NCBI GenBank assembly: GCA_963532115.1
Contig: CAUSJG010000002.1
Location: 12,550 to 76,549, forward strand
Source: an uncultured Candidatus Saccharimonas sp.
GTDB taxonomy: Bacteria > Patescibacteriota > Saccharimonadia > Saccharimonadales > Saccharimonadaceae
Direction: 5' to 3'
Length of the DNA: 64,000 bases
The translations under genes were made by a program, and so were the position numbers. The first letter of the stretch is position 1. Each line of letters begins with the position of its first letter. A model generated the notes under the pieces. It was not told the origin of the DNA. It saw only the letters and a list, made by a program, of their open reading frames with translations, and did not search any database. Shown here piece after piece: positions 3,915 through 54,773 of this stretch.

Positions 3915-4523
3915 TTATCCATTTCCAGCGCGCTTTTCTGAAAGATGTTCGTCATCTCGTGGCGCAATAAAATCTGCATTTTTTTCATCTAGCCTTGCGA
4001 TCACTTTTCGAACGAGCCGCTCAGGGTTATTATCATAAATTATATCTTTCGTGCCCGGAGCTTCAACATTTTGCAAAAGTGTTGGAACATAATCTGCTAA
4101 AGCAGTACTTCCAAGCAAAACACCACAAACCTTGCGAGATTCTAAAGCAGTTGCAAGCTCATGAAGCGAGCCCATTCGACCACCAACCGTAATCACCGCA
4201 TCACTCGAAAGCACTAAATGCGTATCACGCCCAACATAGCTCATTCCCGTAAAATTAATATAATCAAAAGGCTTAAACGGTAATTTATAAGTATTTACAT
4301 GCTGCCGAAAACTTGAAGCGGGCGAAAAACCAATACTTAATCCGGTTCGCCCCTTAACGCTTACTGCACCCAAAGCTGCGTGGTGCGGTATGCCAACCGT
4401 TGCGCCAGTTGTTAGAATTTTTCCCTGCCGAACAATCTCTTGCCCGAGCCTAAAAGCTAAATCTCGTGAAGCTAAAACACTATCACCTGTTGCAGCTCCC
4501 GAAACACAAATTTGATATCTCAT
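3915..4523 (-). CDS. LOG/TIGR00725-like Rossmann-fold protein (possible nucleotide phosphoribohydrolase)
   Basis: 202 aa with a glycine-rich core (ICVSGAATG...TTGATVGIPHHAALGA...VITVGGRMGSLHEL), typical of the lysine-decarboxylase-like/LOG superfamily. Confidence 0.65.
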   Translation of the reverse strand: MRYQICVSGAATGDSVLASRDLAFRLGQEIVRQGKILTTGATVGIPHHAALGAVSVKGRTGLSIGFSPASSFRQHVNTYKLPFKPFDYINFTGMSYVGRDTHLVLSSDAVITVGGRMGSLHELATALESRKVCGVLLGSTALADYVPTLLQNVEAPGTKDIIYDNNPERLVRKVIARLDEKNADFIAPRDDEHLSEKRAGNG

Positions 4524-4986: not shown

Positions 4987-5951
4987 AACTGAATCTCCTG
5001 CATTGGCATTGAATGAAGCTTTGCATTCTTATGCAAAATCCCTTTTTTTGCACCCATATATTGAATTACTGATGTTGAATTTGCGCTGGCGAATAAAATA
5101 CTTTCTTTAATATCAGCACCCTGAGCCCACTGGCTCACAAAGCCTGAACCAAATGCATCACCAGCACCAGTCCTATCTAGCGATGGCACATCTTCATACA
5201 TTCCGGCACGAATAATTTTGTCATCAGAAGCCGCCCAAACACCATTCGCTCCATCTGTTAAAATTGCAACTTCCACAAAACTACAAGCATTTCGAACCAG
5301 CTCTTCAGCAGAAACTCCCTCAAAAATTAAACTTGCTTCCTCTTTATTTACAATTAAAATTTCAACATCTTGAAGTAGGGTTCGAACTTTTTCAGGATCT
5401 TGGAGTTCTTTTTTACCGGGGTTCCATGCTATTTTTGCACCCTTTTTTATAGCTTCTTTAAAAATTTTTAGAAGCGCATCAAATCTACCAGCTAAGTTCG
5501 AAACATAAATCCAATCAAATTCACCATATTTTAATTCAAAATTTTCAGCGTAAATATGTTCCGAGGCGCCACGATAAGTTAAAATCGTTCGTTCACCATT
5601 TGGTGCCAAAATAATAGTTGAATAATCTGTGTTAAATCTTTTCGAAAATTCAACACGCGAAGTATCAATAGATTCTTCATCAAGCATTTTTAAAATTTGT
5701 TCACCCGAAGAGTCTTCTCCAACCACACCCATAAAACTTGAAATCAAACCTTGCCTCGCAAAAGTTGTTGCAGCATTAGTGGCACCACCACCACTCGAAA
5801 TCTCAATATTTTGAATATCAATTTTCGAACCGAGCTGAAATTCAACTACATCTTGGTTTTCTGCCATTGAAATCAAACGAAATTCAGGCGAATTGCTCAA
5901 AAAAACATCCTGAGTAGCCGCTCCAATTGAAAGAATTTTTGGCAAATTCAC
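4983..5951 (-). CDS. PfkB-family carbohydrate/nucleoside kinase
   Basis: 322 aa; ribokinase-like motifs GGGATNAA and DRTGAGDAFGSGF. Confidence 0.85.
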   Translation of the reverse strand: MNLPKILSIGAATQDVFLSNSPEFRLISMAENQDVVEFQLGSKIDIQNIEISSGGGATNAATTFARQGLISSFMGVVGEDSSGEQILKMLDEESIDTSRVEFSKRFNTDYSTIILAPNGERTILTYRGASEHIYAENFELKYGEFDWIYVSNLAGRFDALLKIFKEAIKKGAKIAWNPGKKELQDPEKVRTLLQDVEILIVNKEEASLIFEGVSAEELVRNACSFVEVAILTDGANGVWAASDDKIIRAGMYEDVPSLDRTGAGDAFGSGFVSQWAQGADIKESILFASANSTSVIQYMGAKKGILHKNAKLHSMPMQEIQL

Positions 5952-5953
5952 TT

Positions 5954-6601
5954 TTAAATTGCCCCTTTTCGGTTAAGCTCAGCTTCCATTTGCTTATAGC
6001 TTTGTTCAGGATTTTGTGAATTCATAATTGCCGAACCAACATTCATAACGTCAACACCAGATTGTGCTAAATTGAAAATATTCGAAAGATTAGCTCCGCC
6101 ATCCCAGCCAATCTCAACATTACTGTTAATCTTTTTAATTAAGCGAATCTTCTCGAGTTGCATCATACTTGCATGACCGCCCATTTCGCCTAAATTTCCA
6201 CTAAAAATCAAAATATGCTCAGCCGCCTGAATTGCGGGCGCGACAGTTTCTGGAACAGTTGAACGAAGTAAAGCTAAACCAGGTTTAATCATCGTTTCGT
6301 TTTTAAGCCTTTCGAAAATTGGCACTAAGTCTTCCTCAACTTCAGCATGAAAAATCACCATATTTGGATTAAGCTGAATAATTGTATCAATATGTTCGCT
6401 TGGGCGAGCAACCATCATATGAATATCAACCTTCCACTCTTGAGGCCACCAAATTTGCGTTTCAGGCAATGTTAAATTAGGCGCAAAATTGCCATCTGTT
6501 ACATCAATATGAACTCTTTCCGCAAAAGGAAAGATTGCCTCAACTTGAGCTTTATATTCATCTGGATTGGTTGCTAAAATTGCTGGTGTTATTATCGACA
6601 T
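5954..6601 (-). CDS. rpe: ribulose-phosphate 3-epimerase-like protein (divergent)
   Basis: 215 aa. The motifs HIDVTDGNFAPNLT, DIHMMV, FHAE, GWDGGANL and NVGSAI align with RPE family motifs. Confidence 0.7.
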   Translation of the reverse strand: MSIITPAILATNPDEYKAQVEAIFPFAERVHIDVTDGNFAPNLTLPETQIWWPQEWKVDIHMMVARPSEHIDTIIQLNPNMVIFHAEVEEDLVPIFERLKNETMIKPGLALLRSTVPETVAPAIQAAEHILIFSGNLGEMGGHASMMQLEKIRLIKKINSNVEIGWDGGANLSNIFNLAQSGVDVMNVGSAIMNSQNPEQSYKQMEAELNRKGAI

Positions 6602-32169: not shown

Positions 32170-32257
32170 GCCGCGATGGTGGAATTGGTAGACACGCTAG
32201 ACTCAAAATCTGGTGAGCATTACGCTCGTGCCGGTTCAAGTCCGGCTCGCGGTACCA
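32170..32257 (+). tRNA. tRNA-Leu (anticodon CAA), CCA encoded
   Basis: Hand-folded: acceptor GCCGCGA/UCGCGGU, D-loop AAUUGGUAGA, anticodon loop CUCAAAA, long variable arm, T-arm GCCGG-UUCAAGU-CCGGC, then ACCA. Confidence 0.9.
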
Positions 32258-32311
32258 AAAAAGGAACAGCTAATTGATGGATAGCTGCTTCTTTTAGTTT
32301 ATAGAAGGATT

Positions 32312-32347
32312 AGACCTACGGGATCAGATGTCCGTAGGTCTATTTTG
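32312..32347 (+). terminator. strong hairpin + U-tract
   Basis: AGACCUACGG-10 nt-CCGUAGGUCU + AUUUUGUU. Confidence 0.7.
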
Positions 32348-32607
32348 TTGCCCTAATTGAGGCGATTCCATGTAAATCATCTCTGAGAACTAGCAAAACC
32401 TTCAAATGCGAAACTTAACAATCCGGCAATTATTTAATAGAAGTCTTCCCTTTTGAAAGTGAGCTAATTAGTAATAATTTAGAGCCTAAGCAATTAGATT
32501 GAGAAACTTTAAAATATAGATAAACTAATCGAAGGATATTAAAAACTTTAGTAGTCTATACTATTATAAAATAAAGACTGCCTAAGCAGTCATTTTCATA
32601 TCTATAT

Positions 32608-32683
32608 TGGTGCGGGTTAGGAGACTCTAACTCCTGGCCTCTTCCATGGCAAGGAAGCGCTCTAACAACTGAGCTAAACCCGC
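32608..32683 (-). tRNA. tRNA-Gly (anticodon GCC), CCA encoded
   Basis: Hand-folded: GCGGGUU acceptor, anticodon loop UUGCCAU, T-arm AGGAG-UUAGAGU-CUCCU, then ACCA. Unusual U19/A56 elbow positions. Confidence 0.88.
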
Positions 32684-32731: not shown

Positions 32732-33877
32732 TTAAAATTCTTTCAAAAAATCAATAATCCAAGTTTTATATTTCGAAAGCTTATCTATATATATAAATTC
32801 ATTCTGGTGATGAGCTTCATCCCATTCACCCGGCCCAAAAACAACTATTTGAGCATTTTTCAACCCATTCACGAATTCACCTTGGTCAGTTGCTCCTGGA
32901 CTAACCATAATCGATTCTTCATTTAATTTTGAAACTTTCAAAATATTTTCAATAACCCTTGATTTTTTTGAAACAAGGCTTGAAGGAACCGGATCACTAT
33001 GATACTCCCACTTAAAATCATATTTTTCAGCCAATGAATTGAAGGTATTTTTAAAATCAGAGTCAAGTTCAGGCGTGGTCCGAATATCTAGAATCAATTC
33101 AGCAGAAGGCGCAGTTTTATTTGGACTTTTATCTTCACCAGATTTCAATGAAGTTGGGACCAAACTTGGCGAACCTAAAAAATCGTTCGAAAAACTTTCT
33201 TGCCAATCTTCAAAAATATCGTTAATTTGCGACAGAAAGAATGAAGCTTTCGAAAGTGCAGATTTCTGAAAATTCGCCTGTTGTGAAGCATGGCCACTTT
33301 CGCCTTTAAATTTTAATCGAACAAAACGATTTCCACGATGACCAATTTCAATATTCTCACAATTTGTTGGCTCGGCAATTACTCCAAAAAATTCGCTATA
33401 ATCAAATTCTTTTTGCTCATTCAACCATTTCACAAAATTTCGACTTCCACGGCCATCAATTTCTTCATTAGAAACTGCAACCAGCCAAAGGTCAAAATTA
33501 CTTTCAAAATTATTTTCCTTGACAAATTCAAGACCAGCAATAAATTGAGCCGCTAACCCACCTTTCATATCACTTGCGCCCAAGCCAATAATCTTTCCAT
33601 TCGTTTCAGTCGCTTCCCAAGGTGATTTCTTCCAAGCTCGCAAATCACCAGCTGAAACGGTATCAATGTGTCCCGTCAAAATAATTGCTCGACTACTTTT
33701 TGAAAACCCATTTCCATTTGTTCTAATTCTTAAAACACCAGCCGCAAAATCTTTATTTTGCCAAACTTCGGCCGAATTCTCCCGCAAAAAATCTGCCAAA
33801 AATTCTAAAATCTCCGTCTCATTTCCAGAAACACTCTCGATTTCAATAAGTTTTTTTGTTAGCTCAATTTCGTTCAT
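32732..33877 (-). CDS. M20-family metallopeptidase/deacylase (ArgE/DapE-like)
   Basis: 381 aa; motifs LTGHIDTV, GASDMKGG and SNEEIDG. Confidence 0.82.
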   Translation of the reverse strand: MNEIELTKKLIEIESVSGNETEILEFLADFLRENSAEVWQNKDFAAGVLRIRTNGNGFSKSSRAIILTGHIDTVSAGDLRAWKKSPWEATETNGKIIGLGASDMKGGLAAQFIAGLEFVKENNFESNFDLWLVAVSNEEIDGRGSRNFVKWLNEQKEFDYSEFFGVIAEPTNCENIEIGHRGNRFVRLKFKGESGHASQQANFQKSALSKASFFLSQINDIFEDWQESFSNDFLGSPSLVPTSLKSGEDKSPNKTAPSAELILDIRTTPELDSDFKNTFNSLAEKYDFKWEYHSDPVPSSLVSKKSRVIENILKVSKLNEESIMVSPGATDQGEFVNGLKNAQIVVFGPGEWDEAHHQNEFIYIDKLSKYKTWIIDFLKEF

Positions 33878-41796: not shown

Positions 41797-42036
41797 ATGA
41801 AAAACAATTTTATAATAGTTCACGAAACACTTATACAATCAATATTAGCAGACATCTTTTCATTCCTAACGATTGCCTCAATGTTGTTATTTAATCATTA
41901 TCTGCTAAGCAGTAATGTATTACTTGATTTATGTTTTATGTATATGGCTTTCATTGTGATGAAATCGAAAGGCAATAAAAAGATAAAAAGGTTTGACACT
42001 AAAGAAGAAGCAATTAAATTTTTGGAGAAGCAATAA
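41797..42036 (+). CDS. small membrane protein
   Basis: 79 aa; AAAGGAGA RBS; two hydrophobic helices. Confidence 0.55.
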   Translation: MKNNFIIVHETLIQSILADIFSFLTIASMLLFNHYLLSSNVLLDLCFMYMAFIVMKSKGNKKIKRFDTKEEAIKFLEKQ

Positions 42037-43255: not shown

Positions 43256-43495
43256 ATGAATAAAGCTAAAAAATATGACGATAAAAGAATTAAATCTCTT
43301 TTGAATCCGCGACTAAAGAAAGAGAAAACTATACGACGAGTATTTGTAAGTGATGAATTTAAACAGAAATTTAATATTAATTCACCAGAAAATATCTTTG
43401 AAATAGAAGTCGATCAACGAGTAATGGATAAAGAACATGAAAGAATTATAGATTCATCTATAAAAATTTTAGAAGAAATAAAGGAGCGAGTATAA
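43256..43495 (+). CDS. hypothetical phage protein
   Basis: 79 aa. Confidence 0.5.
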   Translation: MNKAKKYDDKRIKSLLNPRLKKEKTIRRVFVSDEFKQKFNINSPENIFEIEVDQRVMDKEHERIIDSSIKILEEIKERV

Positions 43496-43647
43496 TGAGT
43501 GATAATTTTAAAAATAACTTTTTAGTAATTTGTTTTCTATCAAATTTAGCGTTGTTGGTTTTATCTGATAATTTAGCACTTCGTATTTTGAACTTTTTAG
43601 CGATTATTTTGGTGGTTTATGTGTTTTCGCTAGTTGATAAAAATTAA
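43495..43647 (+). CDS. possible 50-aa membrane protein
   Basis: Below the track cut-off. TAATG overlap with the upstream stop; AGGAG RBS; two hydrophobic stretches. Confidence 0.4.
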   Translation: MSDNFKNNFLVICFLSNLALLVLSDNLALRILNFLAIILVVYVFSLVDKN

Positions 43648-43774
43648 CGATAAGCTTTATTTTTCTTGCAAAATTTGGTATAATTAAAGAGCCCGAGCGC
43701 CAGTTTCAGCGACTTTCTGGCTGAAGCTCGGCTATAAAGAACATTTGTTTTTATAAACTATCGACTTTTTAAAA

Positions 43775-43800
43775 AGAACCCGTTTTGGGTTCTTTTTATT
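43775..43800. terminator. bidirectional terminator where early and late transcription converge
   Basis: AAAAAGAACCC-GTTT-TGGGTTCTTTTTATTTT. Confidence 0.85.
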
Positions 43801-43815: not shown

Positions 43816-44067
43816 CTATTTCTTTGCACCAAGCTTAAATATCGGTTTCAACCCCGCAAAAGCAGTAGCAACTGCACCACTAATCGCCAAAATCTCTTTC
43901 GTTGCGTTTGGAATTAAAATTACACAAATTGTTGCAATTAGCATATTTGTCAAAATCCCAAGGTCAGCAATGAAATAGACTGTAGTTTTCGCCTTTTCGC
44001 TAATTCGTGGCTCATAGTCCGTATTTGCAATATTTTTAGCCACTTCTTCTTGCATTTTATCTAACAT
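43816..44067 (-). CDS. in-frame nested ORF: candidate 83-aa holin
   Basis: An internal ATG at 44067 is preceded by AAAGGAGATTGAA. Product: MLDKMQEEVAKNIANTDYEPRISEKAKTTVYFIADLGILTNMLIATICVILIPNATKEILAISGAVATAFAGLKPIF... Confidence 0.45.
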   Translation of the reverse strand: MLDKMQEEVAKNIANTDYEPRISEKAKTTVYFIADLGILTNMLIATICVILIPNATKEILAISGAVATAFAGLKPIFKLGAKK

Positions 44068-45480
44068 TTCAATCTCCTTTTCTGTCAAAGCCCTTCGTTC
44101 AGCTTTAACTTCATTTTTAACATTTTGCGACACTTTATTTTCAGCTTCATTTTGAGTTGCAATACCTTCGTTTTCAGGTGTTTTTGGCTCATTTTCGGGC
44201 TGTTTTGGAGCTTCGGGTTTAGCTTCATCTTCGCCCTTAACTTTTGCCAGAATTTTACCAAATCTTTCGTCCGAAAGTTGCGCTGGACAAGCCGTTGAAG
44301 AATGATCGCGGTGCTTTCCGATTTTATCAACACCAAGTGCTTGCGAAACTTTCTTTAAGACTTCGATATAACGCTCATCAGTTACATTGTCGAGAAACTC
44401 GATCGTAAAGCTTTCAATATTACTTTCGTGATTACCATTTGTGAACGCTGTATTTCCTTTTGGCACAACTTGAACAATTTTCTCATTCGAAACTACAAGA
44501 TGAGCGGATTTAAAGCTCTCCTTGCGCCTAAATTCATTTGTTGTCGCCTCAATTGAATCATTTGCTGTGTTATGAACTGTAATTTCACGAATTGGTTGCG
44601 AATCTCGCTGTAATTCATCAACAAACTTTTTCTGAATTTCATAATCTTGTGGAATATTACCAAAGTATTTTCCATTGTCATCTTTGAGATTTTTTCGCCC
44701 GTAGAACTGATTCGATACATGAGCTGGAATTACTTCATCTACAAAGTCGAACTCTTTTTCGAACTCAATAAATTCTGGAGCTTTATTTTCTGGAACTACT
44801 GCTTTAGTTTCTGGTTGTGGAGCGTTTCGAAAATCTCCAAGATTTGGCAATGAACCTTCTTTTTCATCGAAGGCTGAGAAGTGAAGGTAAACACCTGAAC
44901 GCTGAGATTTGAACCAACGATCATCACCATTTACATTTTCGCCATAAACCCAACCAGCCATTTCAATGTCTGAACCATCTGGATAAGTTGCGAACACGCC
45001 AGATTGAGTTGTAGGCTCATATCGAACATTTACTCCAACACCTGAATTTACTACACGAACATTGTCACTCTTTTCTACGACTTGAACACCACCAATTCTT
45101 TCACTCCAGCCAAGATATCGAAGTCCGTATATGCTGAACCACTGACAGATTTCAGCAATCGAGTTATAAATTCCTCTCGCTCCGCTATGAACTTCACTGT
45201 CATGAATCTCGATCCTTCCATCTCCGTGCTTAAACGCCCAACCTACGTGTTCGTAGGGGTCATATTCTCCACTAGTTATATCAAAGAAGACCGGAACCCA
45301 TAGTCCAACAGGAGGTTCTTCTTCGTGAATATTTCCCGCTGCCCTTTGAGCTAAGTATTCTAGCCCTGCCGATTCTCTACGAACAGGTGCATTAACTACA
45401 TCATCTGCGTATTGTAAACACCATCCTCGACTTGCTCTAATATCAAGGTTCGGAGTTGTTTTTTGAATATATTTTGACAT
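43816..45480 (-). CDS. multidomain endolysin: CHAP-like peptidase + SH3b-like + amidase_2 (PGRP-type) + C-terminal two-TM holin-like module
   Basis: 554 aa. GWCLQY...HVGWAFKHG (Cys/His peptidase), VNVRYEP...DDRWFKS (SH3b-like), ITVHNTAND...GKHRDHSSTACPA (amidase_2). aa 499-547 form two TM helices. Confidence 0.8.
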   Translation of the reverse strand: MSKYIQKTTPNLDIRASRGWCLQYADDVVNAPVRRESAGLEYLAQRAAGNIHEEEPPVGLWVPVFFDITSGEYDPYEHVGWAFKHGDGRIEIHDSEVHSGARGIYNSIAEICQWFSIYGLRYLGWSERIGGVQVVEKSDNVRVVNSGVGVNVRYEPTTQSGVFATYPDGSDIEMAGWVYGENVNGDDRWFKSQRSGVYLHFSAFDEKEGSLPNLGDFRNAPQPETKAVVPENKAPEFIEFEKEFDFVDEVIPAHVSNQFYGRKNLKDDNGKYFGNIPQDYEIQKKFVDELQRDSQPIREITVHNTANDSIEATTNEFRRKESFKSAHLVVSNEKIVQVVPKGNTAFTNGNHESNIESFTIEFLDNVTDERYIEVLKKVSQALGVDKIGKHRDHSSTACPAQLSDERFGKILAKVKGEDEAKPEAPKQPENEPKTPENEGIATQNEAENKVSQNVKNEVKAERRALTEKEIEMLDKMQEEVAKNIANTDYEPRISEKAKTTVYFIADLGILTNMLIATICVILIPNATKEILAISGAVATAFAGLKPIFKLGAKK

Positions 45481-45490
45481 TATTTCCTCC

Positions 45491-45796
45491 TTATTTTTTA
45501 ATTAGTCCGCCATTCAAAACGAATTGCACTAATGCTCCTAAGATTGCCACGCCTACAGCCCAAACAATTTTACTCTGATTCTCTTCGAGTCGCCGAAGAC
45601 GCTCTTTGTTGCGTTCAGCCTCACGACGGACACTCTCAATATCTTTTTGGTGCTCAGTCACCGATTTCGAAAGCCCTGCAATAATCTCGAGCTGATCGTT
45701 TGTATGTTCAACAATCTGCGTTAAACTATTGATTTTCTCTTCCAGAACATCAATTCGTGCTTCGAAGACTTCTTTGCTTATATATTTATCATCCAT
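45491..45796 (-). CDS. XhlA-like lysis-associated membrane protein
   Basis: Trimmed to ATG 45796 (AAAGGAGGA RBS). Coiled-coil N-terminus plus a single C-terminal TM (IVWAVGVAILGALVQFVL). Confidence 0.55.
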   Translation of the reverse strand: MDDKYISKEVFEARIDVLEEKINSLTQIVEHTNDQLEIIAGLSKSVTEHQKDIESVRREAERNKERLRRLEENQSKIVWAVGVAILGALVQFVLNGGLIKK

Positions 45797-45809: not shown

Positions 45810-46139
45810 CTACACTTGTTTTGCCTTATTCTCTTCAAAATCCCAGATTTGTCTCGAACTTTTTTCTCTGAAATATTCTTTCTTCAAAAGCTCTTTCTCA
45901 ATTGCCTCCTTTGAAATTTCAGTTCCTTCAGATAATTGAACACTAAAAGTATTTAAACTAAGGTCTTTCGTGCTGTCGCCAGCCTTGCGTGCTTTCACCT
46001 CATCAGCATAAGTCGCTCCGTTCGCGAAACTGCGAATTACAACCGTTCCACTGCCGTTAAAACTTGTAGTGAATTGATCAACTTCATGCCAAGTCATCAC
46101 CGCATCTCGTTCATCTTTGATCATTTTTACAATAGCCAT
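45810..46139 (-). CDS. hypothetical phage structural/accessory protein
   Basis: 109 aa; AAGGAGAG RBS. Confidence 0.55.
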   Translation of the reverse strand: MAIVKMIKDERDAVMTWHEVDQFTTSFNGSGTVVIRSFANGATYADEVKARKAGDSTKDLSLNTFSVQLSEGTEISKEAIEKELLKKEYFREKSSRQIWDFEENKAKQV

Positions 46140-46151: not shown

Positions 46152-47954
46152 TTATAAATTATTTTTAGCTAAATACACTCCAGACGTGTGATATTCTTGA
46201 TGATTATCTGTTCCACGCTTTTCGATTTCACCACTTAAGCCGAGTTTAATGATGAAACCACCTGAGTGCCTACCGTTGTTAATGCATATTCCAGCAAATG
46301 CTGTTTCGTGCTTAGGCCAGTATTTCTCTGGAATTTTTTCGAGCATTTTACCATTTCCGTAATTTCCAGTAAAAGATAGGCGGAATCCACAAAATCCATT
46401 TTTCTTGTAGAAAAGACCTTTAGCTCCCCACCCCATATCTATCATCTCCCAGTGGTCTGTGTCTTCCTGACTATCCGTGAGAACCTTTCTGCCTCGCGAG
46501 AAAATATCGCCTAAAACATCTAAATCACCGAATTCAGGAACTTTATTTACACCTACCTTTTCAGTATTGTTTGAAATAAAGAAAATTGGTTTTCCTGGCG
46601 AAATTTCTGCTACAGATGAAGTTTCACTCAATCTGTCTGTTACCTTTACTTCAATCTCGAAACTACCAGCACGATTTAAGCTCAGGTATTGCCTTTGAGC
46701 CGAGAAATTCGCTTCTGTAAGAACTGCTTGAATCGTTTTCCAGTTCTCCCAACTTCCACCGCTCGCTCTGTGCCGCATTTGGAGCAAAACAATGCGGTTT
46801 TTGTTCGAATTTATAATTTTTAATGTTGAGATTGTTCCGGAAATATCAATTTCTACTGTTTCATCAAAATTGTTTTGTCGCTTCGCTGAAACGCTCAAAA
46901 CTGGCGCAGAATATGGCAAAACTTCCGCTGTTTTATTGACGGTTTTCGAAATCCCACGCGAATCCACTGCTGAAGCTGAAATTGTTAAGCTACCTGCTGA
47001 ATTTATCGCTCTTTCGAAAATCGCTTGAACCTGCTGATTTTCGCTATAATCTGCTGAAATTGTTGCTCCGTCTGCTGCAAAAACATATCTTGATGGGCTA
47101 GCATATTTTTTCGCAGCCATTTTATTTTTCGGCAAAACCCACGCTTTTGGTTTCGAAAATCCCTGCACGAATATTTTAGGATTTCCAGTAATTTCTGTAA
47201 TTTTGGCGTTAGAATCTGCAAAATCAAAATCGTTAAAATCTGGCTGAATTTTGCTTGAATCGAGCTGAATTTCGACATTTGTCCAGCTGAGCCCGCCTAT
47301 CTGCGTTCCGCCGTTCCAAGTGGTAATATCTGCTCCAAGGCTTGTTCTTGTGGTGTTAGCCATTCGTTTATAGATTTCATCTATTTCTCTTTCGTTAGGT
47401 TGCCACACGAATTCACCTTGAGCGTGTTCAAAGCGAACAATTTCATTTTGATCTGGAATTTGCAACGAGCCAATATGTGTGAAGTTAGCTTTTCGGTTCA
47501 TATTGAGCTGGATTGGTTCGCCTAAAGTGTAAAGACCTTTCGAAAAGCTTGGATTGCTCTGACGTGGAATTGTAGGCAGATTATAAACGCGAGAAGTTCC
47601 TTGGCTTCGTCCGCCACCGTAAAAACTTAATCCTACGCCAATTTGGAACTCCGCTGTTCCGTCATCTCGGTGATTAACGCGAACAGTTCCACTGGCAATA
47701 TAATGGTTTCGAGTGCTTAAATTTCCTTGATACGGCTTAATTCTTCCGCCATTGTTATAAACTTGTCCAGCATTTGTATTTACAAATCCGGCGTCAAGCT
47801 GTGAGTCTGATCGATTAAAATGTGCGTGAAATTGCCAATTCAATAAGCTGAAATTACCTGCAATATCTTGATGTGCTAATTGAAAATCGACAAATGCGTA
47901 ATTATCATTATTGCCACCAATGCGCACACCATTAGCGCGAAAACTCTCATTCAT
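46152..47954 (-). CDS. tail fibre / receptor-binding protein candidate
   Basis: 600 aa, the last large gene of the tail module, Gly/Asn/Ser-rich. The call rests on position. Confidence 0.45.
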   Translation of the reverse strand: MNESFRANGVRIGGNNDNYAFVDFQLAHQDIAGNFSLLNWQFHAHFNRSDSQLDAGFVNTNAGQVYNNGGRIKPYQGNLSTRNHYIASGTVRVNHRDDGTAEFQIGVGLSFYGGGRSQGTSRVYNLPTIPRQSNPSFSKGLYTLGEPIQLNMNRKANFTHIGSLQIPDQNEIVRFEHAQGEFVWQPNEREIDEIYKRMANTTRTSLGADITTWNGGTQIGGLSWTNVEIQLDSSKIQPDFNDFDFADSNAKITEITGNPKIFVQGFSKPKAWVLPKNKMAAKKYASPSRYVFAADGATISADYSENQQVQAIFERAINSAGSLTISASAVDSRGISKTVNKTAEVLPYSAPVLSVSAKRQNNFDETVEIDISGTISTLKIINSNKNRIVLLQMRHRASGGSWENWKTIQAVLTEANFSAQRQYLSLNRAGSFEIEVKVTDRLSETSSVAEISPGKPIFFISNNTEKVGVNKVPEFGDLDVLGDIFSRGRKVLTDSQEDTDHWEMIDMGWGAKGLFYKKNGFCGFRLSFTGNYGNGKMLEKIPEKYWPKHETAFAGICINNGRHSGGFIIKLGLSGEIEKRGTDNHQEYHTSGVYLAKNNL

Positions 47955-49945
47955 TATCTTTCTCCTTTCGAATTTGCAACAAATGCCCAGCCAGTCTTTT
48001 CGCCATCTTTAATCGCTACAATTTTAATTGGCGACATATCGATTTCATCTTCCGCTTTAAATTTCTTCACCTCAGTCGTATCCTTATTAACAGTAAAAAC
48101 TCGCTGTATGTTATGTCCAATTTTTGAATATCCGGAGAATTCTAATGGTGTAATAGCGGTATAATCACCCTCGTTAACCGAACTCTTGATGATCAAACCG
48201 TGCTCATCGATATGTAAATTTGCATTCGAAATTTCACCCTGAGCTTGTGTCCAAACGCTGGCGGTTTTATTGTTCACTAAGCTCAAATCCGCAAAAGCAA
48301 TTGTTGAATTTGCGTTTGCTGTAATTCTTACGCTTAGAGCATTATTCTGTGGCAGAATTCCTTCAATTTTTACTTCTGCCCAATCGAAACTAGTGCCTTC
48401 TACAATTTCGAAAGTTCTCGCAACTGTTTCACCGTCTAAAATTTCAATTTTACCTGAGCCAATTACTGGTTTTTTAACTCGACAAGAAAAACTGTAGAAA
48501 TTTTGTTTTTCACTTGTAAAATTCGAAGCTACTGCCACAGTTTGCGTTAAGCTATCATTTCGAATTGTGATCTTTCGCCCTGAAACAGCTCCTTTACTAC
48601 GAGCTTCAGCAGAATTTTCAACCGAAAGATTTTGAACAGCTCGAATAATCCAGAAATTAGGCGAGTTAGTCTTTTCATCGAATGAATAAAATGCGGAATT
48701 CTTAAGCAAATTCAAGCCACCAGTTTTTGATAGCGTATAATTAAAGTCCGTTAAAGTTTGATCAAGACGTGAAAACTTTTCGAACGTTTCGCTTTCTAAT
48801 TTCTCTTTTTGCGAAATCACGCTTGCGATTTCTTGCTTTTGTTTATCAACGACGATTTCAGTATTAAAAATAGTTCTAGCAATTCCACCAGCTCGTTTGT
48901 AATCTGTTTTAGTTTTTTCTAATTCTTTACCAACCAAAGATTCTTTAATACTCGAACCGCTAATTTCAATTTTAATGCCTGAAATCACGCTTTCAGTGAA
49001 GTTATCACCGTTTTGAATTTCAACTCGATCACCAATTTCAAACCAGAATAAGCCGATTGTTTCCGCCTCGAACGGCTGGGCTTCATATCCCTTTACCGCC
49101 TCAAAAATTGACGAAATAACTTCAGTTCGGTTTTTGTCTAAAATTTCATTATTTGCGAGTTTAAATTCACTTTCGCCCTGTTGTGCAACTTTTTCATTAT
49201 CTTTCACAAAAATATTATCTTCTTGTGGCGTTCTTGCAAGCGTTAATGTATTTATTGGCACATTTTTTGGCTTAAATTTTAAGCTTTTTAATTCGGAATA
49301 AGTTATTCGGTCAATTTTTGCACGCTTAATTGGTTCAAATCTTAAAGCAGAATTTCGAACGATCGCAGTTGTTGCGGTCGCTCCACAAACCTCGTCAAGA
49401 ATACTTCGAAAAGTAGTCTTGTTTATTTTTTCCCACAAATCTTTTGAAATTGTAAAATTTGCGTTCGGTAATCTTTCAAAATCCGCTCGTTTGAACTCAA
49501 GATTGAACTTATTTGCAATTTGAACTACTAAGTCTGTCAAAGAAGCAGGAAAAGTTAAACTGCCAGCTGAATATTCTTGAGTTGAAAGTCCCGCTATAAA
49601 ATCAAAACCTTTAATTGTTGTGGTGTTTTTCTCAAGATTTACTGAGCTTTCCGAAATTCGAAAACTGCCAAGATTTATTTTCTCAAAAGTATTGTTTTGA
49701 AAATTAGTTTTAACTTCAATTTCAACCTGAATAACCTGATTAATTAGATTCTTCGAAACACCCAAAATTACGGCCGAAAATCCACTCATTGAGCTTAAAA
49801 ATGGCGCTCCTGTTCGTTCGATCGAAAAACTAGCAAGTTCATCATTACTGGTTATTTTTGTGCCATTCGCCAAAATTAACGCAGTTCGAATTTCCCTCGT
49901 TGGCTGTTTGATTGCTTGTTTGAAATTTTCACTAACAATAAGCAT
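47954..49945 (-). CDS. tail tip / baseplate structural protein
   Basis: 663 aa, in the usual position of the tail-associated (Tal-like) protein downstream of the tape measure. Confidence 0.5.
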   Translation of the reverse strand: MLIVSENFKQAIKQPTREIRTALILANGTKITSNDELASFSIERTGAPFLSSMSGFSAVILGVSKNLINQVIQVEIEVKTNFQNNTFEKINLGSFRISESSVNLEKNTTTIKGFDFIAGLSTQEYSAGSLTFPASLTDLVVQIANKFNLEFKRADFERLPNANFTISKDLWEKINKTTFRSILDEVCGATATTAIVRNSALRFEPIKRAKIDRITYSELKSLKFKPKNVPINTLTLARTPQEDNIFVKDNEKVAQQGESEFKLANNEILDKNRTEVISSIFEAVKGYEAQPFEAETIGLFWFEIGDRVEIQNGDNFTESVISGIKIEISGSSIKESLVGKELEKTKTDYKRAGGIARTIFNTEIVVDKQKQEIASVISQKEKLESETFEKFSRLDQTLTDFNYTLSKTGGLNLLKNSAFYSFDEKTNSPNFWIIRAVQNLSVENSAEARSKGAVSGRKITIRNDSLTQTVAVASNFTSEKQNFYSFSCRVKKPVIGSGKIEILDGETVARTFEIVEGTSFDWAEVKIEGILPQNNALSVRITANANSTIAFADLSLVNNKTASVWTQAQGEISNANLHIDEHGLIIKSSVNEGDYTAITPLEFSGYSKIGHNIQRVFTVNKDTTEVKKFKAEDEIDMSPIKIVAIKDGEKTGWAFVANSKGER

Positions 49946-50320
49946 TTACGCCTCTTTTCTAACTGGAATTAAACTCACTTTAAAGGGGTCGAAAATTCCA
50001 CGTTTTTTGTCTTTGAGCTGAACGCTGTAATCGCCAGCGTAAAATTGGCCAGATTTCATCGCATTATATTTTGGGTCGAAATATTCAACTGTGAAAAATG
50101 GTAAATCAACCACGCGTGCGATTTTTTGGATTTCTGCCACAGTTAAAATTCCGCCAAATTCAACTTCAATTTTTGGGAAAATTCCAATCATTGTTGCACG
50201 AATTTCGCCGGCCATATTGCGGTCTGAATTTAGCCAGAGCTTATTTCTCTGGAGTTGATAACTTTTCAAATTCGAAAAAACCTGACCATTGATTTTAAGT
50301 AATTCACCATTTATTTGCAT
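49946..50320 (-). CDS. small tail structural protein
   Basis: Trimmed to ATG 50320 (AAGGGGA RBS), because the longer ORF covers a promoter/terminator cassette. Confidence 0.45.
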   Translation of the reverse strand: MQINGELLKINGQVFSNLKSYQLQRNKLWLNSDRNMAGEIRATMIGIFPKIEVEFGGILTVAEIQKIARVVDLPFFTVEYFDPKYNAMKSGQFYAGDYSVQLKDKKRGIFDPFKVSLIPVRKEA

Positions 50321-50346
50321 TTTCGAAATTCCCCTTTCGTTTGGAC

Positions 50347-50428
50347 ATAAAAAAGCGACCCACCCCGAGGGGTGAATCGCAAATGGTTCTTCTAACTTTA
50401 TTATACCAAACTTTAGCCTTTTTGGCAA
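50347..50428 (-). promoter_or_regulatory. late cassette B: promoter + conserved box + intrinsic terminator
   Basis: Minus strand TTGCCA-17 nt-TGGTATAAT, then 9 nt, then AGAACCATTTGCGA. A 12-bp hairpin GCGAUUCACCCC-UC-GGGGUGGGUCGC (two G:U pairs) follows, then UUUUUUAU. Confidence 0.6.
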
Positions 50429-50447
50429 AAAATAAGTTTAAAATTAA

Positions 50448-51197
50448 TTAATAATTTAATACATCTTTAGAGCTTAGTAATCCGTTTACAAAATGAAAAT
50501 GTGCGTATTTACCTTCATATTTACAGCGATACATTTGGCTCTTACCAATAGCACTATCAGAATCACTATATTTTTCACAAGCTTTCTTAATATCATATAC
50601 ATTAGAAAGGTTGTCTATATTCGCACCAATGGCTATTTTTTCATATCTTGCATTAGTTAGATATAAGTTATTATTAGGTTCTTCCTTAGAAAAAGATATT
50701 TCGGCTTTACCATAATAATAAGGCTCACCATTTATTGCAATGATTTTATCGACACTTTCTGCGCCGCGATCTTGATTTGTAACTAATACTTCGATTTTAT
50801 TGTTTTCCTGTTGTGAAAAATCTGAAATATTAAACGTTACAAAATCCTCCAACGACTCTTTTCCTTGAGTTTCTTTTTCTATAGTCTTATTACATTTGCT
50901 CAATGGGTCTTTATGACTGACCGTATTTTCACAGTTGATTCTAATGCTCATTTTTGCAACATTTTTAAATCCTGAGATTTTGATCTTATAACTATTTTTA
51001 CCAGTTTCAAGAGTTTGGTCTTTCTCTATATTAACAGATATTTTCTGTTTTGAGACCTCGTTGCTTATCTCTTTATTTCCCTTTTTGGCCGAAGAACCTG
51101 CCCAGACTATAATAATAAAAAACAGTATAAAAACAGATATAATCGTATATAATATAGCTTTTTTATCCGAATTCAATCTCGTTTTTTTCTGATTCAT
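50448..51197 (-). CDS. membrane-anchored exported protein inserted in the tail module (moron-like)
   Basis: 249 aa; N-terminal TM helix (AILYTIISVFILFFIIIVWAG). Has its own promoter and 5' leader, and follows the terminator that comes after the tape measure gene. Confidence 0.6.
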   Translation of the reverse strand: MNQKKTRLNSDKKAILYTIISVFILFFIIIVWAGSSAKKGNKEISNEVSKQKISVNIEKDQTLETGKNSYKIKISGFKNVAKMSIRINCENTVSHKDPLSKCNKTIEKETQGKESLEDFVTFNISDFSQQENNKIEVLVTNQDRGAESVDKIIAINGEPYYYGKAEISFSKEEPNNNLYLTNARYEKIAIGANIDNLSNVYDIKKACEKYSDSDSAIGKSQMYRCKYEGKYAHFHFVNGLLSSKDVLNY

Positions 51198-51367
51198 TTT
51201 TTTCCAATCCTCGACTAAATAAATTGAGCCGATGTTTAAAGTAGTATTGTTGTTCAGACGAATACGAAAGCTTCAAAATAAGCAAAAACATCAGCTCAAT
51301 TTAAAAGCTTTCCGTATTTTTTTGTCTGAACAATTTTATTATACAACCAAAAGCCTATCAAAATCAA
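51198..51367 (-). promoter_or_regulatory. promoter and structured 5' leader of the moron gene
   Basis: Minus strand TTGATT-18 nt-TATAAT (51338-51367). The leader contains two interleaved long helices: A/A' (51305-51332 with 51251-51273) and B/B' (51287-51302 with 51222-51237). Confidence 0.5.
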
Positions 51368-51369
51368 GC

Positions 51370-51389
51370 AAAAAAGAGGCATTCGCCCC
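51370..51389 (-). terminator. intrinsic terminator directly after the tape measure gene
   Basis: Minus strand GGGGC-GAAU-GCCUC + UUUUUU, 10 nt after the stop codon. Confidence 0.6.
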
Positions 51390-51398
51390 TTTTTCTCT

Positions 51399-54300
51399 TT
51401 AGATATCAAACACCGTTCTATTTTCAAGGAAACTTTTCGCATTGACACCATCAATAATTTTATTAACCAGCGTGTCCTCGCCAACCTTAACCGTGATTTG
51501 CTGTTTTTGGTTGCGAATCGCTTCTTCGATCTTATCCATCGCAGTCTCGCGTTCTTTATCGAGTTTGCTTTGGTAATCAAGATGAGCTTTTACGGTTTGA
51601 TCAACGCCATAATCTGGAGTATCTACGTCAAAATTGGTTTTCACTGTATACTCTGGGATTTCGAAGTCGGTCATTTTAGTGAAAGCTTTTGAAACTGTGT
51701 TCATCTCGCTTTGGATTCCAAGCGCGAAACCTTCGCTCACGAATCCACCATAACTCTTAAACAATCTTGAAGGTGAATGGATGCCAAGGAATTTTTTCAC
51801 ACCTTCCACAGCCCCAGAAAACATATTTCTCATATTATTAGCAATATTTCCAATTCCGGATTTTAATCCTTCCCAAATATTTCTACCAATATTCGAAAAA
51901 GTTTGCCAAGCATTCGAAAATGCGTTTTTAATATCGCCCCAGCGGTCGCTAAACCACTGACCGATTCCGCCAAAAAATGATGTAATTCCATTCCAAGCGT
52001 CCGAGCCTGCTTTTTTTGCCCAGCTGATAAATTCACCAAATTTTTCACCAGCCCAGCCTGCAAATTTCCCTAATTGATCACCAGCTGTCGCAAGACTCTT
52101 TCCCATCGGCCCGAAGAACCCTTGATCAGCGCCGCTTTTCGAATCGCGATAAGTTTTTACAATATCTTGAGACTTTGTTTTTGTAGTATTTTCAAGTCGT
52201 GAAATATCTTCTTCGCTGACTTTCACCATATTGCCGTTTTCATCTTTGTATTCCAAAACGCCACTCTTTAATGCATCGATTGCATCTTTCGAATTTTTAT
52301 ATTTTCCTTGGATTACGGCTTGTGAAGTTGCATCAGCTAGCCTTTGAGCTAATTCCTCATCCTTTGCTTTTTTAAGCTCTTCAGTTTTAGATTTCGTGTC
52401 TTGGATCGCCTTGTTCATATTATCCTGTGAAGTTTGAACTTTTTGATTAGCTTGTTCGAGCAGCAAACCTTTTTCATAAACCGCTTGTTGCTGTGGAGTT
52501 AAGTTTTCGAAAGCAAGCGTTCCAGATTCAATTTGCGACTTAACACTTTCAAAACTTATTCCAGTTTGTTGCTGAGCTATCGCCAATTCTTCCATCGCTC
52601 TCTTTTGAGCCTTTACTGCCTCGATTCTTTGCAAATTTGCATCAGTTTCAGAATTTCTCGCATTTTTAAGATTTTCTTCTGCCGTTTTAACACCATCAAC
52701 TGCTTTTTGCAGATCTTCTTGAGCCTTCTTGAGTGCTTTAGCTCGAGCTTCGCTCTCCCACATTGCAGGATTTCCTTGTTCGAAGGCTGATTTTATCGAA
52801 CCACCCAAGAATGCAAATCCTGCTGCAATACCGGCTATTGCTAAAATTAATGGATGAGCCATTACTGTATTGAAAGCGCCAATTACCGAAGTTTTAATAC
52901 TTGCACCGAGTGCAATAACCGATGCTTTTATACCCGCAATTCCTCCACCAGCAAGCACAAATGCACTTTTTACTGAACCGAGGCTCGAGACCATAGAAGC
53001 CATTACTTGAGGGCTTGAAAGCGCTAGGGCTTGCATTGTTTTGACACCTGCATTAAATGCTGAAATTGCTTCAGCAGCTTTAATTGCTACAGTCATTCCA
53101 CCAATTGTAATAGTAATTTGAGTTAGGAAATCAACCAGTCCTTTATCTTTCGACATTGCTCGAAAAGCATCACCAATTCCATTTAAGAATTTCACGATTC
53201 CTGATCCGATAAAACCAACGAGTGGCGCAATAAAAGCATCAATGAAGGGACGCGAGAAATTATAAGCAGATTTAAACATTTCACCAAGAAATCTCGCCGC
53301 CCCACCAACTGCATTCAAAAAAGCAGGCAAAAGTTCATTTCCAGCCCAACTAATAATTGGTTTTAGATATCGCTCCCAAGCATCGCCGATAACCTCAAAA
53401 ACTGGTTTTGCGGTTGCTTTAATATCATCCCAAAATCGTTTAAAAGCCGAACCGATTTTCTTGAAATCAAACATATCTGAGAAAAAGCCCTTAATCTTAT
53501 TTGCAATTTCTTCAGCTTTTAATCCAATATCATCAAATGCGTTTTTAAATCCGCCTGTTGGAATTTCTGGCATGTCAAAATCAACACCACCGCCACCGCC
53601 AGAGCCAGCTCCACCGCCGCCACCGCCTGAACCTGTATCTTCAGGTGTTTTTAGCACATTCATTTCATCAAATTTAGCAAGACCAAGGAGTTCTTTCTTT
53701 AGTTTTTTAGCTGAACCTGCGGCTTTATTCATTCCGCCAGCTCCACCTGAACCGCCTGCAGATTTACCGAGATTACTCATTCCCTTCGAAGCAGAATCTG
53801 CTGCTTTCGAAACTCCACCAAAGCCGAGTGCTCCGCCTGCTTTTTTAGTTACGCCAAACAACGAAGAAATTGCCGAAATAACATAATTCACCATTGTGCC
53901 GATAACTTTCATAAAGCCAACAATATACGGAATTGCAGCGTTAATTGCAGGTATCAAAACGCTAGACACAAAGTTTGAGACGCTCAAAACAACAGGCGCG
54001 AAGGCTGAGCCAAGAGTCGCAGCAACATTCGAAAGCTCTGCGCGCAAAATTGCCAGTGCTCCTTCAAGTGTCATCGATTCTCGTGCAAAATTACCAGCAT
54101 ACTTCCCTGTTCTATCCATAAACATTTGGTAGGCAATACCAACTTTCTCACCAGTGGTCATTTTCTCAATATTGCCTTGAATGCCTTTTTCGAGCATATA
54201 AGCAGATAATGCCGTATCGTTCATAGCAACGCCGAGGTTATCCATCATTGTGAAGTTACCTTTTGCCATTCCAGCTACGCTTTCAAGTGCAGCCTCTTGA

Positions 54301-54773
54301 CTAATTCCCATCACGCTTGCGACATCTGCTGCCCGTTGCATTGCTTTTGTGGTCATTATCATTGATTTTTGGACATCATAGCCTGCACCTTGAAAAAGCG
54401 AGCCCATTTTATTCGCCGCTGCTAAATATTGCGACATTGAAGTTCCCATTGTTTGAGCGGATTCTTTCGATTTTTGCTTTACAGCATCTGAAAACTGTCC
54501 AAAAACAGCTTCAGCACCGCCAAGGTTTTGCTCTAATGAACCAAATTCGCTAGTTGCTGCTTTTGCAACTCCAACAACAGCACTAAAAGCGCCCTTTAAA
54601 GCTCCGAGCGCTAATTGTGCTTTTAGAAACCCACCAGTAATTGATTCTCCTGAGCCTCTTGCAGATTGACTAACTTGTGCGAGATTCTCACGCACTTTTG
54701 CAATTTCGCTTTGGAATTTTGAACTGTTGGCTGAAATTAAAACCTGCAGTTCATCGATTGTGGTTTTACTCAT
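51399..54773 (-). CDS. tail tape measure protein
   Basis: 1124 aa, the largest gene. Ala/Gly-rich helical and hydrophobic segments, a poly-Gly tract, located after the chaperone pair. Confidence 0.88.
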   Translation of the reverse strand: MSKTTIDELQVLISANSSKFQSEIAKVRENLAQVSQSARGSGESITGGFLKAQLALGALKGAFSAVVGVAKAATSEFGSLEQNLGGAEAVFGQFSDAVKQKSKESAQTMGTSMSQYLAAANKMGSLFQGAGYDVQKSMIMTTKAMQRAADVASVMGISQEAALESVAGMAKGNFTMMDNLGVAMNDTALSAYMLEKGIQGNIEKMTTGEKVGIAYQMFMDRTGKYAGNFARESMTLEGALAILRAELSNVAATLGSAFAPVVLSVSNFVSSVLIPAINAAIPYIVGFMKVIGTMVNYVISAISSLFGVTKKAGGALGFGGVSKAADSASKGMSNLGKSAGGSGGAGGMNKAAGSAKKLKKELLGLAKFDEMNVLKTPEDTGSGGGGGGAGSGGGGGVDFDMPEIPTGGFKNAFDDIGLKAEEIANKIKGFFSDMFDFKKIGSAFKRFWDDIKATAKPVFEVIGDAWERYLKPIISWAGNELLPAFLNAVGGAARFLGEMFKSAYNFSRPFIDAFIAPLVGFIGSGIVKFLNGIGDAFRAMSKDKGLVDFLTQITITIGGMTVAIKAAEAISAFNAGVKTMQALALSSPQVMASMVSSLGSVKSAFVLAGGGIAGIKASVIALGASIKTSVIGAFNTVMAHPLILAIAGIAAGFAFLGGSIKSAFEQGNPAMWESEARAKALKKAQEDLQKAVDGVKTAEENLKNARNSETDANLQRIEAVKAQKRAMEELAIAQQQTGISFESVKSQIESGTLAFENLTPQQQAVYEKGLLLEQANQKVQTSQDNMNKAIQDTKSKTEELKKAKDEELAQRLADATSQAVIQGKYKNSKDAIDALKSGVLEYKDENGNMVKVSEEDISRLENTTKTKSQDIVKTYRDSKSGADQGFFGPMGKSLATAGDQLGKFAGWAGEKFGEFISWAKKAGSDAWNGITSFFGGIGQWFSDRWGDIKNAFSNAWQTFSNIGRNIWEGLKSGIGNIANNMRNMFSGAVEGVKKFLGIHSPSRLFKSYGGFVSEGFALGIQSEMNTVSKAFTKMTDFEIPEYTVKTNFDVDTPDYGVDQTVKAHLDYQSKLDKERETAMDKIEEAIRNQKQQITVKVGEDTLVNKIIDGVNAKSFLENRTVFDI

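Follow-up and report, generated by a model that had tools for sequence, protein, structure and literature searches.

A prophage endolysin gene of Saccharibacteria ends in a two-helix membrane module with a conserved nested translation start, suggesting one gene for a tethered lysin and a holin partner

To characterize the lysis genes of a prophage in an uncultured Candidatus Saccharimonas sp., we analysed a 64,000-nucleotide stretch of contig CAUSJG010000002.1 (the window), in which the endolysin gene continues, as a single open reading frame (ORF), into a C-terminal module of two transmembrane (TM) helices. An in-frame ATG preceded by a Shine-Dalgarno (SD) sequence stands at the boundary of this module. 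The fusion is conserved among relatives, and the internal SD and its start codon appear to be under selection. The explanation that we consider best, and hold with a little more confidence than doubt, is a lysis cassette arranged like that of phage SPP1, except that no stop codon separates the endolysin from the two-TM unit, so that one gene would give rise to both a membrane-tethered lysin and a free 83-residue holin partner. The parts of the gene on which this explanation draws are located as follows.

43816 to 45480 (stop codon included), minus strand: full-length ORF of 554 residues, endolysin plus membrane module, with the SD AAGGAGG before its ATG at 45480
43816 to 44067, minus strand: nested in-frame ORF of 83 residues, from Met472 to the stop codon, with a charged cytoplasmic head, a two-TM hairpin and a short basic tail (KLGAKK)
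44074 to 44080, minus strand: internal SD AAAGGAG, 6 nucleotides before the internal ATG, with an anti-SD duplex of -8.9 kcal/mol
43912 to 43980, minus strand: TM helix 1, residues 501-523, VYFIADLGILTNMLIATICVILI (Kyte-Doolittle, AlphaFold)
43837 to 43893, minus strand: TM helix 2, residues 530-548, ILAISGAVATAFAGLKPIF (Kyte-Doolittle, AlphaFold)
44086 to 44229, minus strand: disordered Pro/Glu/Lys-rich linker, residues 418-465 (AlphaFold pLDDT, the predicted local distance difference test, <50)

A preliminary description of this DNA had proposed a single 554-residue endolysin ORF, a Pro/Glu/Lys linker between amidase and TM region, two TM helices at nucleotides 43840-43986 and an 83-residue product nested in frame from Met472, and each of these elements was borne out, with the ORF at 43816-45480 on the minus strand and the Met472 codon at 44067-44065. 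Kyte-Doolittle peaks fall at residues 504-522 and 530-548 and AlphaFold helices at residues 495-522 and 524-542; an additional amphipathic helix (residues 467-485, AlphaFold) lies between the linker and the helical hairpin. Basic residues precede the first TM helix (RISEKAK) and follow the second (KPIFKLGAKK), and the connecting loop is very short (PNATKE), a combination that favours an N-in/C-in hairpin. The second helix is rich in small residues (SGAVATAFAG) and therefore suited to helix packing. Because the 554-residue protein lacks an N-terminal signal sequence, its catalytic domains should remain cytoplasmic, tethered by the disordered linker of ~50 residues. In its sequence features, namely its size, its pair of TM helices and its charged cytoplasmic part, the nested 83-residue product fits a class II holin (about 65-95 residues; XhlB/gp26 and S21 are examples).

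The tethered fusion anticipated in the preliminary description proved genuine and conserved. Over 100 full-length homologues (545-581 residues, 28-95% identity) identified in a protein search share the C-terminal module; the module lies in frame behind an endolysin in 15 of 15 Saccharibacteria genome loci with a full-length module match, and the fusion is kept in all 53 complete viral-contig loci. An exhaustive hidden Markov model search of 1.84 billion representative proteins yielded 53 clusters, and in every long match (290-953 residues) the module formed the extreme C-terminus. Its N-terminal partners are exclusively peptidoglycan hydrolases, of at least seven kinds (Amidase_2, Amidase_3, Amidase_5, CHAP, GH25, Peptidase_M23 and the putative peptidase of the window), a distribution that marks the module as a mobile, lysin-specific C-terminal domain. 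All named genome matches were to metagenome-assembled genomes (MAGs) of Saccharimonas or Saccharibacteria. Among 50,697 phage records, three queries identified no cultured or deposited phage carrying the module, a tblastn search of the same records with the whole protein left its C-terminal part unmatched, and a viral scan with P0181 as query gave no match.

These data bear directly on the possibility that the fusion is an assembly or sequencing artefact, caused by a lost stop codon or a frameshift between endolysin and holin genes. Databases do hold 83-146-residue "stand-alone" module entries (P0121-P0140, P0150, P0152 and others), an observation in favour of such an error. Hundreds of independent assemblies nevertheless carry the uninterrupted ORF, and the stand-alone calls that we inspected are themselves artefacts or remnants: a run of N (scaffold gap) interrupts the junction in L006, whose close relative L014 reads through; frameshifts in a long-read assembly account for L001; L030 is a 931-nucleotide contig on which the frame is open to the edge and the gene caller took the internal start; and L002-L005 represent a decayed prophage remnant with the lysin part deleted and a +1 frameshift in an A-run before the ATG. 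The refuting condition named in the preliminary description, a stop codon ahead of the TM region in homologues, thus came out negative, every inspected stop or separate gene being of these kinds. With all intact relatives keeping the fusion, a sequencing error or lost stop codon was ruled out, and we regard an artefactual fusion as next to impossible.

The remnant in L002-L005 (about 5790-6360), near integrase and ribosomal protein genes, retains an intact module ORF of 119 residues (MSHNLENS...) with an SD of its own (-9.0 kcal/mol). The protein falls in a 90%-identity cluster of 26 member sequences and is found in identical form on at least seven contigs. Its retention may be due to chance, or the module may be useful alone.

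We then consider the internal start itself. The strong SD claimed for the ATG at 44067 is present as AAAGGAG at 44080-44074, with a spacer of 6 nucleotides (ATTGAA) rather than the 7 originally given. We call an SD strong if its duplex with the anti-SD reaches at least -8 kcal/mol. Of 292 in-frame ATGs internal to ORFs of the window (16,920 codons), 8 have such an SD; five of the eight lie within the first 37 codons and are probably true starts, two are G-U-rich artefacts, and no deep internal site of the AGGAG type is left but that of the ATG at 44067. Across 22 homologous genes, strong SDs precede 26 of 36 ATGs in the boundary zone compared to 0 of 94 elsewhere. Close sequences are not independent, and raw counts therefore overstate how many observations are; independent lineages number roughly 9-12. 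The linker and head zone is rich in Lys and Glu, with abundant AAR and GAR codons, and GGAG occurs there almost solely three to four codons before the boundary ATGs.

Within a set of 16 close sequences, GGAG remains constant despite varying residues before the Met (EKEIEM, EEELKM, EGELKM, DKEIKM, DKEFKM), and codons -89 to -84, the six before the ATG, form the sole six-codon window (1 of 88) with zero synonymous diversity. Lys is encoded by AAG (10/10) and Glu by GAG (15/15) in these six codons, compared to 77% AAA and 65% GAA in the rest of the module. Furthermore, an SD-preceded start at the module boundary is kept in lineages with module identities of 12-30% and genomes of 36-61% GC, for which the position of the start and the strength of its SD are given below.

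L026: start 86 codons before the stop, SD -9.2 kcal/mol
L027: start 101 codons before the stop, SD -8.9 kcal/mol
L028: start 106 codons before the stop, SD -11.8 kcal/mol
L025: start 85 codons before the stop, SD -6.6 kcal/mol
L024: start 82 codons before the stop, SD -5.6 kcal/mol
L029: start 101 codons before the stop, SD -5.9 kcal/mol
L031 (Curtobacterium prophage, 61% GC): start 100 codons before the stop, SD -8.1 kcal/mol
L030 (fragment of higher GC): start 100 codons before the stop, GGAGAGGAGG upstream of the ATG

Members with Val in place of the initiating Met encode it by GTG and retain an intact SD, an observation that is supporting and not decisive, as GTG is the sole Val codon one step from ATG. 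The spacing of the internal SD matches that of genuine gene starts in the same phage, the SD is predicted to be unpaired in the folded mRNA, and gene callers repeatedly picked the internal start on fragments. At the level of sequence comparison, these patterns indicate that a signal for translation initiation is kept by purifying selection and is not a relic in decay. The preliminary proposal of dual products from one ORF thereby gains strong comparative support, with the SD and its ATG or GTG conserved, synonymous variation suppressed over the SD and GGAG rare in the linker.

Two alternatives dispute that the motif serves as a start. SD-induced translational pausing has been proposed in the literature and is disputed; here, a programmed pause might allow domain folding or membrane arrival before the TM helices emerge, and the position of the motif, at the boundary of the soluble part and the membrane module, would suit it. 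A pause needs no start codon 6-9 nucleotides downstream, yet Met (or a GTG-encoded Val) is conserved family-wide, at a spacing typical of real gene starts in the same phage, and we consider this explanation highly improbable. According to the second alternative, only the full-length protein matters: the C-terminal hairpin makes it a self-sufficient, holin-independent lysin of the M4Lys type, and the internal SD and ATG have no present use, being left over from an ancestor in which the module had its own gene. M4Lys does lyse E. coli alone, with its TM domain (TMD) essential and not lytic by itself (PMC7143992); for the Curtobacterium member of the family, the published description goes no further than a lysin whose "Domain 4" is a TM domain (PMC9862828); and a free-standing module gene has been verified in no intact phage. 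A relic should decay, yet SD and start persist across the module divergence and GC range given above, synonymous sites are frozen exactly over the SD, and amino-acid changes around it preserve GGAG. Together with the single TMD and unrelated sequence of M4Lys-type proteins, these observations make an idle internal start distinctly unlikely.

Other means of controlling the short product were tried and rejected. The mRNA around the internal start folds no more stably than shuffled sequences (z = -0.05), which removes the case for a regulatory structure. Promoter-like matches (11, compared to 7.6 +/- 2.7 in shuffled sequences) show no excess that would point to an internal promoter, and the short product therefore needs no separate transcript. 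A lambda-like dual start within the module (M472-L-D-K-M476) was discarded, the second Met not being conserved in relatives (MLEDLQ...). In the Amidase_5-type relatives L012-L021, a second internal SD and ATG (MSHN...; up to -11.9 kcal/mol) lies 119 or 105 codons before the stop, and the sequences of these variants suggest that they might produce three isoforms; the equivalent codon in the window is a GTG (about 44133) with a weak SD.

Three further membrane-protein genes lie near the endolysin gene.

45491 to 45796, minus strand: XhlA-like gene, 101 residues, N-terminal coiled coil and one C-terminal TM helix (residues 77-95), strong SD AAAGGAGG
41797 to 42036, plus strand: small two-TM ORF, 79 residues, charged C-terminal tail, good SD, at the end of the early convergent operon
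43495 to 43647, plus strand: small two-TM ORF, 50 residues, good SD, at the end of the early convergent operon

The XhlA-like ORF lies 10 nucleotides upstream of the lysin start and has the size and topology of XhlA (about 90-100 residues, coiled coil, single TM helix). Its product matches phrog_1193 "hemolysin" (E=1.4e-7), a member of its cluster is called "hemolysin" in nr, and it scores 19.2 bits against Pfam XhlA (PF10779), under the cut-off of 34.7. We treat it as a candidate holin partner. By a strict automatic criterion, a one-TM XhlA-like ORF stands directly upstream in roughly half of related loci; in L027, an HNH endonuclease gene (3646-3972) occupies the place directly upstream of the fused lysin instead. 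In the late operon of the window, the XhlA-like gene is the only other TM ORF. The preliminary statement that it is the only other membrane protein nearby thus applies to the late cassette, and fails for the opposite, early strand with its two small two-TM ORFs. Likewise, the late lysis cassette of the window does lack a stand-alone holin, but this does not extend to relatives L024 and L031, which have extra small TM ORFs.

Several observations weigh against the explanation that we favour, in addition to the limited number of independent lineages. Searched against the holin families of Pfam and PHROG at E values up to 10, the module matched no family, bar one chance-level match, and it shows no similarity to SPP1 gp26 (hhalign probability 0.3%); by sequence it lies outside every described holin family. 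The XhlA-like protein has no BLASTP similarity to SPP1 gp24.1, and the parallel to SPP1 is an analogy of layout, size and topology, not demonstrated homology or descent. In one lineage the helices are weakly hydrophobic, several sequences having no 19-residue window above 1.6 on the Kyte-Doolittle scale, which leaves room for dynamic behaviour like that of signal-arrest-release (SAR) helices. The internal SD is no more than moderate in three lineages (L024, -5.6; L025, -6.6; L029 group, -5.9). Between its tail genes and lysin (3538-4038), L024 carries ORFs for a 3-TM protein of 104 residues and a two-TM protein of 60 residues, and the Curtobacterium prophage L031 has an extra two-TM ORF of 76 residues by the lysin; the module therefore need not be the sole or main hole-former. 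Finally, the early-strand two-TM ORFs of the window could encode alternative holins, superinfection-exclusion proteins or something else; neither matches a PHROG family, and the 50-residue ORF is also without a Pfam match.

As to the genomes concerned, L024 belongs to a ~62-70-kb phage lineage with a lysin 72% identical, and its two small TM ORFs are missing from the gene calls on record. The weakness of its internal SD alongside separate TM ORFs may mean that the nested start weakens where separate holins are present. In relative L006, a 50-residue gene is called at the position matching 43495-43647.

Several of these points suit a reading in which both isoforms are made and the short one is not a hole-former but an antiholin-like inhibitor or a multimerisation partner (as in Lys170, CTP1L and CD27L), with the XhlA-like protein or other small TM proteins breaching the membrane. 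Endolysin isoforms from internal starts are known to partner structurally with the full-length chain (PMC9430671, PMC4777826), additional holin-like ORFs occur in some relatives, two further two-TM ORFs are present in the window, and the module is without similarity to known holins. We nevertheless find this reading fairly unlikely: in the late cassette of the window the XhlA-like protein has no membrane-protein company apart from the module, the other two-TM ORFs sit in the convergent early operon and belong to no PHROG family, and in the SPP1/PBSX precedent neither holin-like protein appears harmful alone (PMC6316719).

In the SPP1-like cassette that we favour, the late operon would end in a compact lysis unit whose two-TM gene has merged with the endolysin gene while keeping its own ribosome-binding site (RBS) and start codon. 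Three products are predicted: the XhlA-like protein, the full-length 554-residue lysin and, from the ATG at 44067, the free 83-residue module. The full-length lysin would hold its catalytic domains in the cytoplasm, bound to the membrane through the flexible linker of ~50 residues and the N-in/C-in hairpin. The free module, probably in excess, would form a membrane assembly together with its XhlA-like partner and the full-length protein, whose hairpin is identical to its own. Once triggered, this assembly would breach the membrane, and the tethered enzyme, already at the lesion, could reach the peptidoglycan through it. The two RBSs would set the ratio of the isoforms, which could tune lysis timing, and the bulky full-length form may act as a brake, like the longer product of dual-start holins. 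The analysis establishes the fusion, its conservation, the topology signals and selection on the internal SD and start codon; synthesis of both products, membrane permeabilisation by the module and its partnership with the XhlA-like protein are our inferences.

A bolder form of this idea, which we put forward tentatively and with more doubt than conviction, is a one-gene "lysin plus holin" device in Saccharibacteria phages and at least one actinobacterial prophage: a hetero-oligomer of many free 83-residue hairpins and few lysin-bearing ones, with their ratio as the lysis clock, the full-length protein as an antiholin-like brake, a lysin that is never soluble and lysis that is cell-autonomous.

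The soluble part of the endolysin comprises three domains upstream of the linker.

45070 to 45474, minus strand: N-terminal domain, residues 3-137, putative Cys peptidase, with Cys21 invariant and His78 and Asp94 nearly invariant
44833 to 45060, minus strand: SH3b-like beta-barrel, residues 141-216, probable cell-wall-binding domain (AlphaFold, PDB sequence match, Foldseek)
44236 to 44643, minus strand: Amidase_2 (N-acetylmuramoyl-L-alanine amidase) catalytic domain, residues ~280-415 (Pfam, AlphaFold, Foldseek)

Amidase_2 was confirmed by Pfam (PF01510, PlyL/XlyA/PlyG type; residues 294-382, E=4e-8, 34.1 bits against a cut-off of 26), and its Amidase_2/PGRP fold by Foldseek matches to PlyL (1yb0; E=6e-7, target-normalised TM-score 0.66) and XlyA (3rdr; 0.64); AlphaFold pLDDT is 70-93 across the domain, with a mean of 65 for the whole protein. 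The SH3b-like domain (residues ~141-216) found support in a PDB sequence match (E=0.004) and a Foldseek match to 8b2g (target-normalised TM-score 0.76). The "CHAP-like" label of the preliminary description is plausible, not proven, for residues 3-137: Cys21, His78 and Asp94, weak Foldseek similarity to CHAP/NlpC enzymes and a true CHAP domain at the equivalent N-terminal position of other homologues argue for it, and the Pfam scan returned no match. The domain does match phrog_12298 (E=6e-20). In homologues P0056, P0149 and P0153 (783-953 residues), an intein-like insertion (Intein_splicing/Hint, below threshold, E about 1e-4) lies inside CHAP and directly precedes the Cys aligned with the expected CHAP catalytic Cys (junctions marked by slashes, ...GYQ/CLTEDS...HHN/CKDY..., compared to the uninterrupted ...GYHCKDY... 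of P0057); judged by these motifs, the endolysin gene of a phage would here contain an intein.

The prophage resides in the chromosome of an oral Saccharibacteria (TM7) bacterium. Flank proteins at 8.5-30.5 kb fall in clusters of at least 90% identity with proteins of Candidatus Nanogingivalis and Candidatus Saccharimonas MAGs, and the host has a Mur ligase gene and therefore makes peptidoglycan. The prophage of ~31 kb adjoins tRNA-Leu(caa) and tRNA-Gly(gcc) at 32170-32683; beside them, a 381-residue ORF (32732-33877) is taken as a putative integrase from position alone. Early genes run on the plus strand as far as 43647, and structural genes on the minus strand from 64000 down to the lysis genes.

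46152 to 54773, minus strand: tail genes (phrog_372)
43770 to 43798, no strand assigned: terminator-like hairpin, a 13-bp palindrome between the convergent late (minus) and early (plus) operons

The endolysin is the final gene of the late structural operon, adjoining the XhlA-like membrane protein gene, and the terminator-like hairpin closes this operon directly after the endolysin stop codon; the operon therefore contains no lysis gene beyond the endolysin. Between the tail protein (phrog_372) and the XhlA-like gene lies a conserved ORF of 109 residues (45810-46139, minus strand), with a 109-residue homologue in L006, no family match and no TM helix. Prophages are common in oral TM7, and the paper that reports them mentions no lysins, holins or amidases (PMC7739484).

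As far as the searched literature goes, three aspects are new: the pairing, in one gene, of a lysin with a two-TM holin-like module whose nested start is under selection; the recognition that the module forms a coherent family, so far unannotated, confined to the C-termini of lysins; and the prevalence of this module in Saccharibacteria prophages, with one actinobacterial member and absence from 50,697 deposited phage genomes. Already known were C-terminal-TMD endolysins, the four-domain Curtobacterium lysin, the reverse-order fusion of Clostridium sporogenes and internal starts in endolysin genes. The timing of lysis and the export of the lysin are central problems in phage biology, and phage lysis of Saccharibacteria and other bacteria of the candidate phyla radiation (CPR), which make up a large share of bacterial diversity and are common in the human mouth, is almost uncharted. 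The family suggests that a system of three proteins like that of SPP1 has been condensed into two genes in Saccharibacteria prophages, and that the internal-start device of endolysins would here deliver a membrane module rather than a wall-binding domain. If our explanation is true, the module would represent a new holin-like family without a Pfam or PHROG model, the protein would be the first natural lysin whose second isoform is a membrane protein, and silent SD mutations would offer a simple genetic handle on isoform ratio and lysis time. Should the one-gene device be true, it would add an undescribed holin family and a new coupling of hole formation to wall degradation, and cell-autonomous lysis would spare sister cells as well as the attached actinobacterial host cell of these episymbionts. 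Gene callers split or truncate these genes, and annotations of "no holin found" in such phages may be wrong.

Among known systems, the closest in layout is SPP1, in which gene 24.1 encodes an XhlA homologue whose single TM helix is C-terminal, gene 25 the endolysin and gene 26 an XhlB homologue of 82 residues with two TM helices; each of the SPP1/PBSX holin-like proteins alone appears harmless, together they kill the cell and permit lysis, and dual starts have been described for the SPP1 holins (PMC6316719). The window has the same order of one-TM coiled-coil protein, endolysin and ~82-83-residue two-TM unit. In both, the RBS of the two-TM unit is embedded in the lysin coding sequence, that of SPP1 gene 26 (AAAGGAG) lying inside the last codons of gene 25, with 1 nucleotide between stop and start. 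The catalytic domain fold of PBSX XlyA also resembles the Amidase_2 domain of the window. Unlike SPP1, the window has no stop codon between lysin and two-TM unit, which a linker of ~50 residues joins instead, and the charged domain of its module is an N-terminal head, whereas that of the SPP1/PBSX counterpart is a C-terminal tail.

Internal starts are frequent in endolysin genes and yield a second, C-terminal isoform that multimerises with the full-length chain (PMC9430671, PMC4777826); the survey of such starts mentions no transmembrane product, and holins appear in its reference list only (PMC9430671). Lys170, CTP1L, CD27L, LysIME-EF1 and phi2638A share with the window a single ORF, an internal SD and ATG at a linker-domain boundary and a C-terminus common to both isoforms, and in the window, as in Lys170-type lysins, association of the short isoform with its identical counterpart in the full-length chain is expected. 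The short isoform of Lys170-type lysins is a soluble cell-wall-binding domain, whereas that of the window would be a two-TM membrane module.

C-terminal-TMD endolysins exist in some Gram-negative phages (PMC7143992, PMC8879335, PMC8943055). M4Lys (BSPM4), LysAP (AP1) and the Enc34 endolysin resemble the window in placing the catalytic domain at the N-terminus and the membrane segment at the extreme C-terminus, which M4Lys requires to lyse cells from within; they differ in their single TMD (two TM helices in the window), Gram-negative hosts, unrelated sequence and lack of a reported internal start. The endolysin of Curtobacterium prophage "Cluster 1" (WP_111226277.1, P0151) itself belongs to the module family (E=1.6e-18). 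It has been described as a four-domain lysin whose TM Domain 4 may assist translocation, with the nested start unremarked (PMC9862828). Catalytic domain, binding domain, disordered linker, TM domain and internal SD with ATG are common to it and the window; its host is actinobacterial, and its cassette has the separate 76-residue two-TM ORF, in contrast to the window.

A natural holin-endolysin fusion is also known from Clostridium sporogenes, with a holin of the TpeE/BhlA family (PMC9527704). Like the window, it combines a holin-like membrane segment and an endolysin in one chain, in the opposite order, with the holin N-terminal and the C-terminal lysin proposed to flip to the other side of the membrane; a single TM helix and an amphipathic one make up its membrane part, and no nested start has been described. 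Two lysis products of different roles also arise from overlapping coding sequence in phages lambda and 187, as they would in the window. The dual-start holin S105/S107 of lambda yields products that differ by 2 residues, in a ratio set at translation initiation, and phage 187 has an out-of-frame holin embedded in its endolysin gene. The isoforms of the window would differ by 471 residues, the lysin itself, and would share a frame where those of phage 187 do not.

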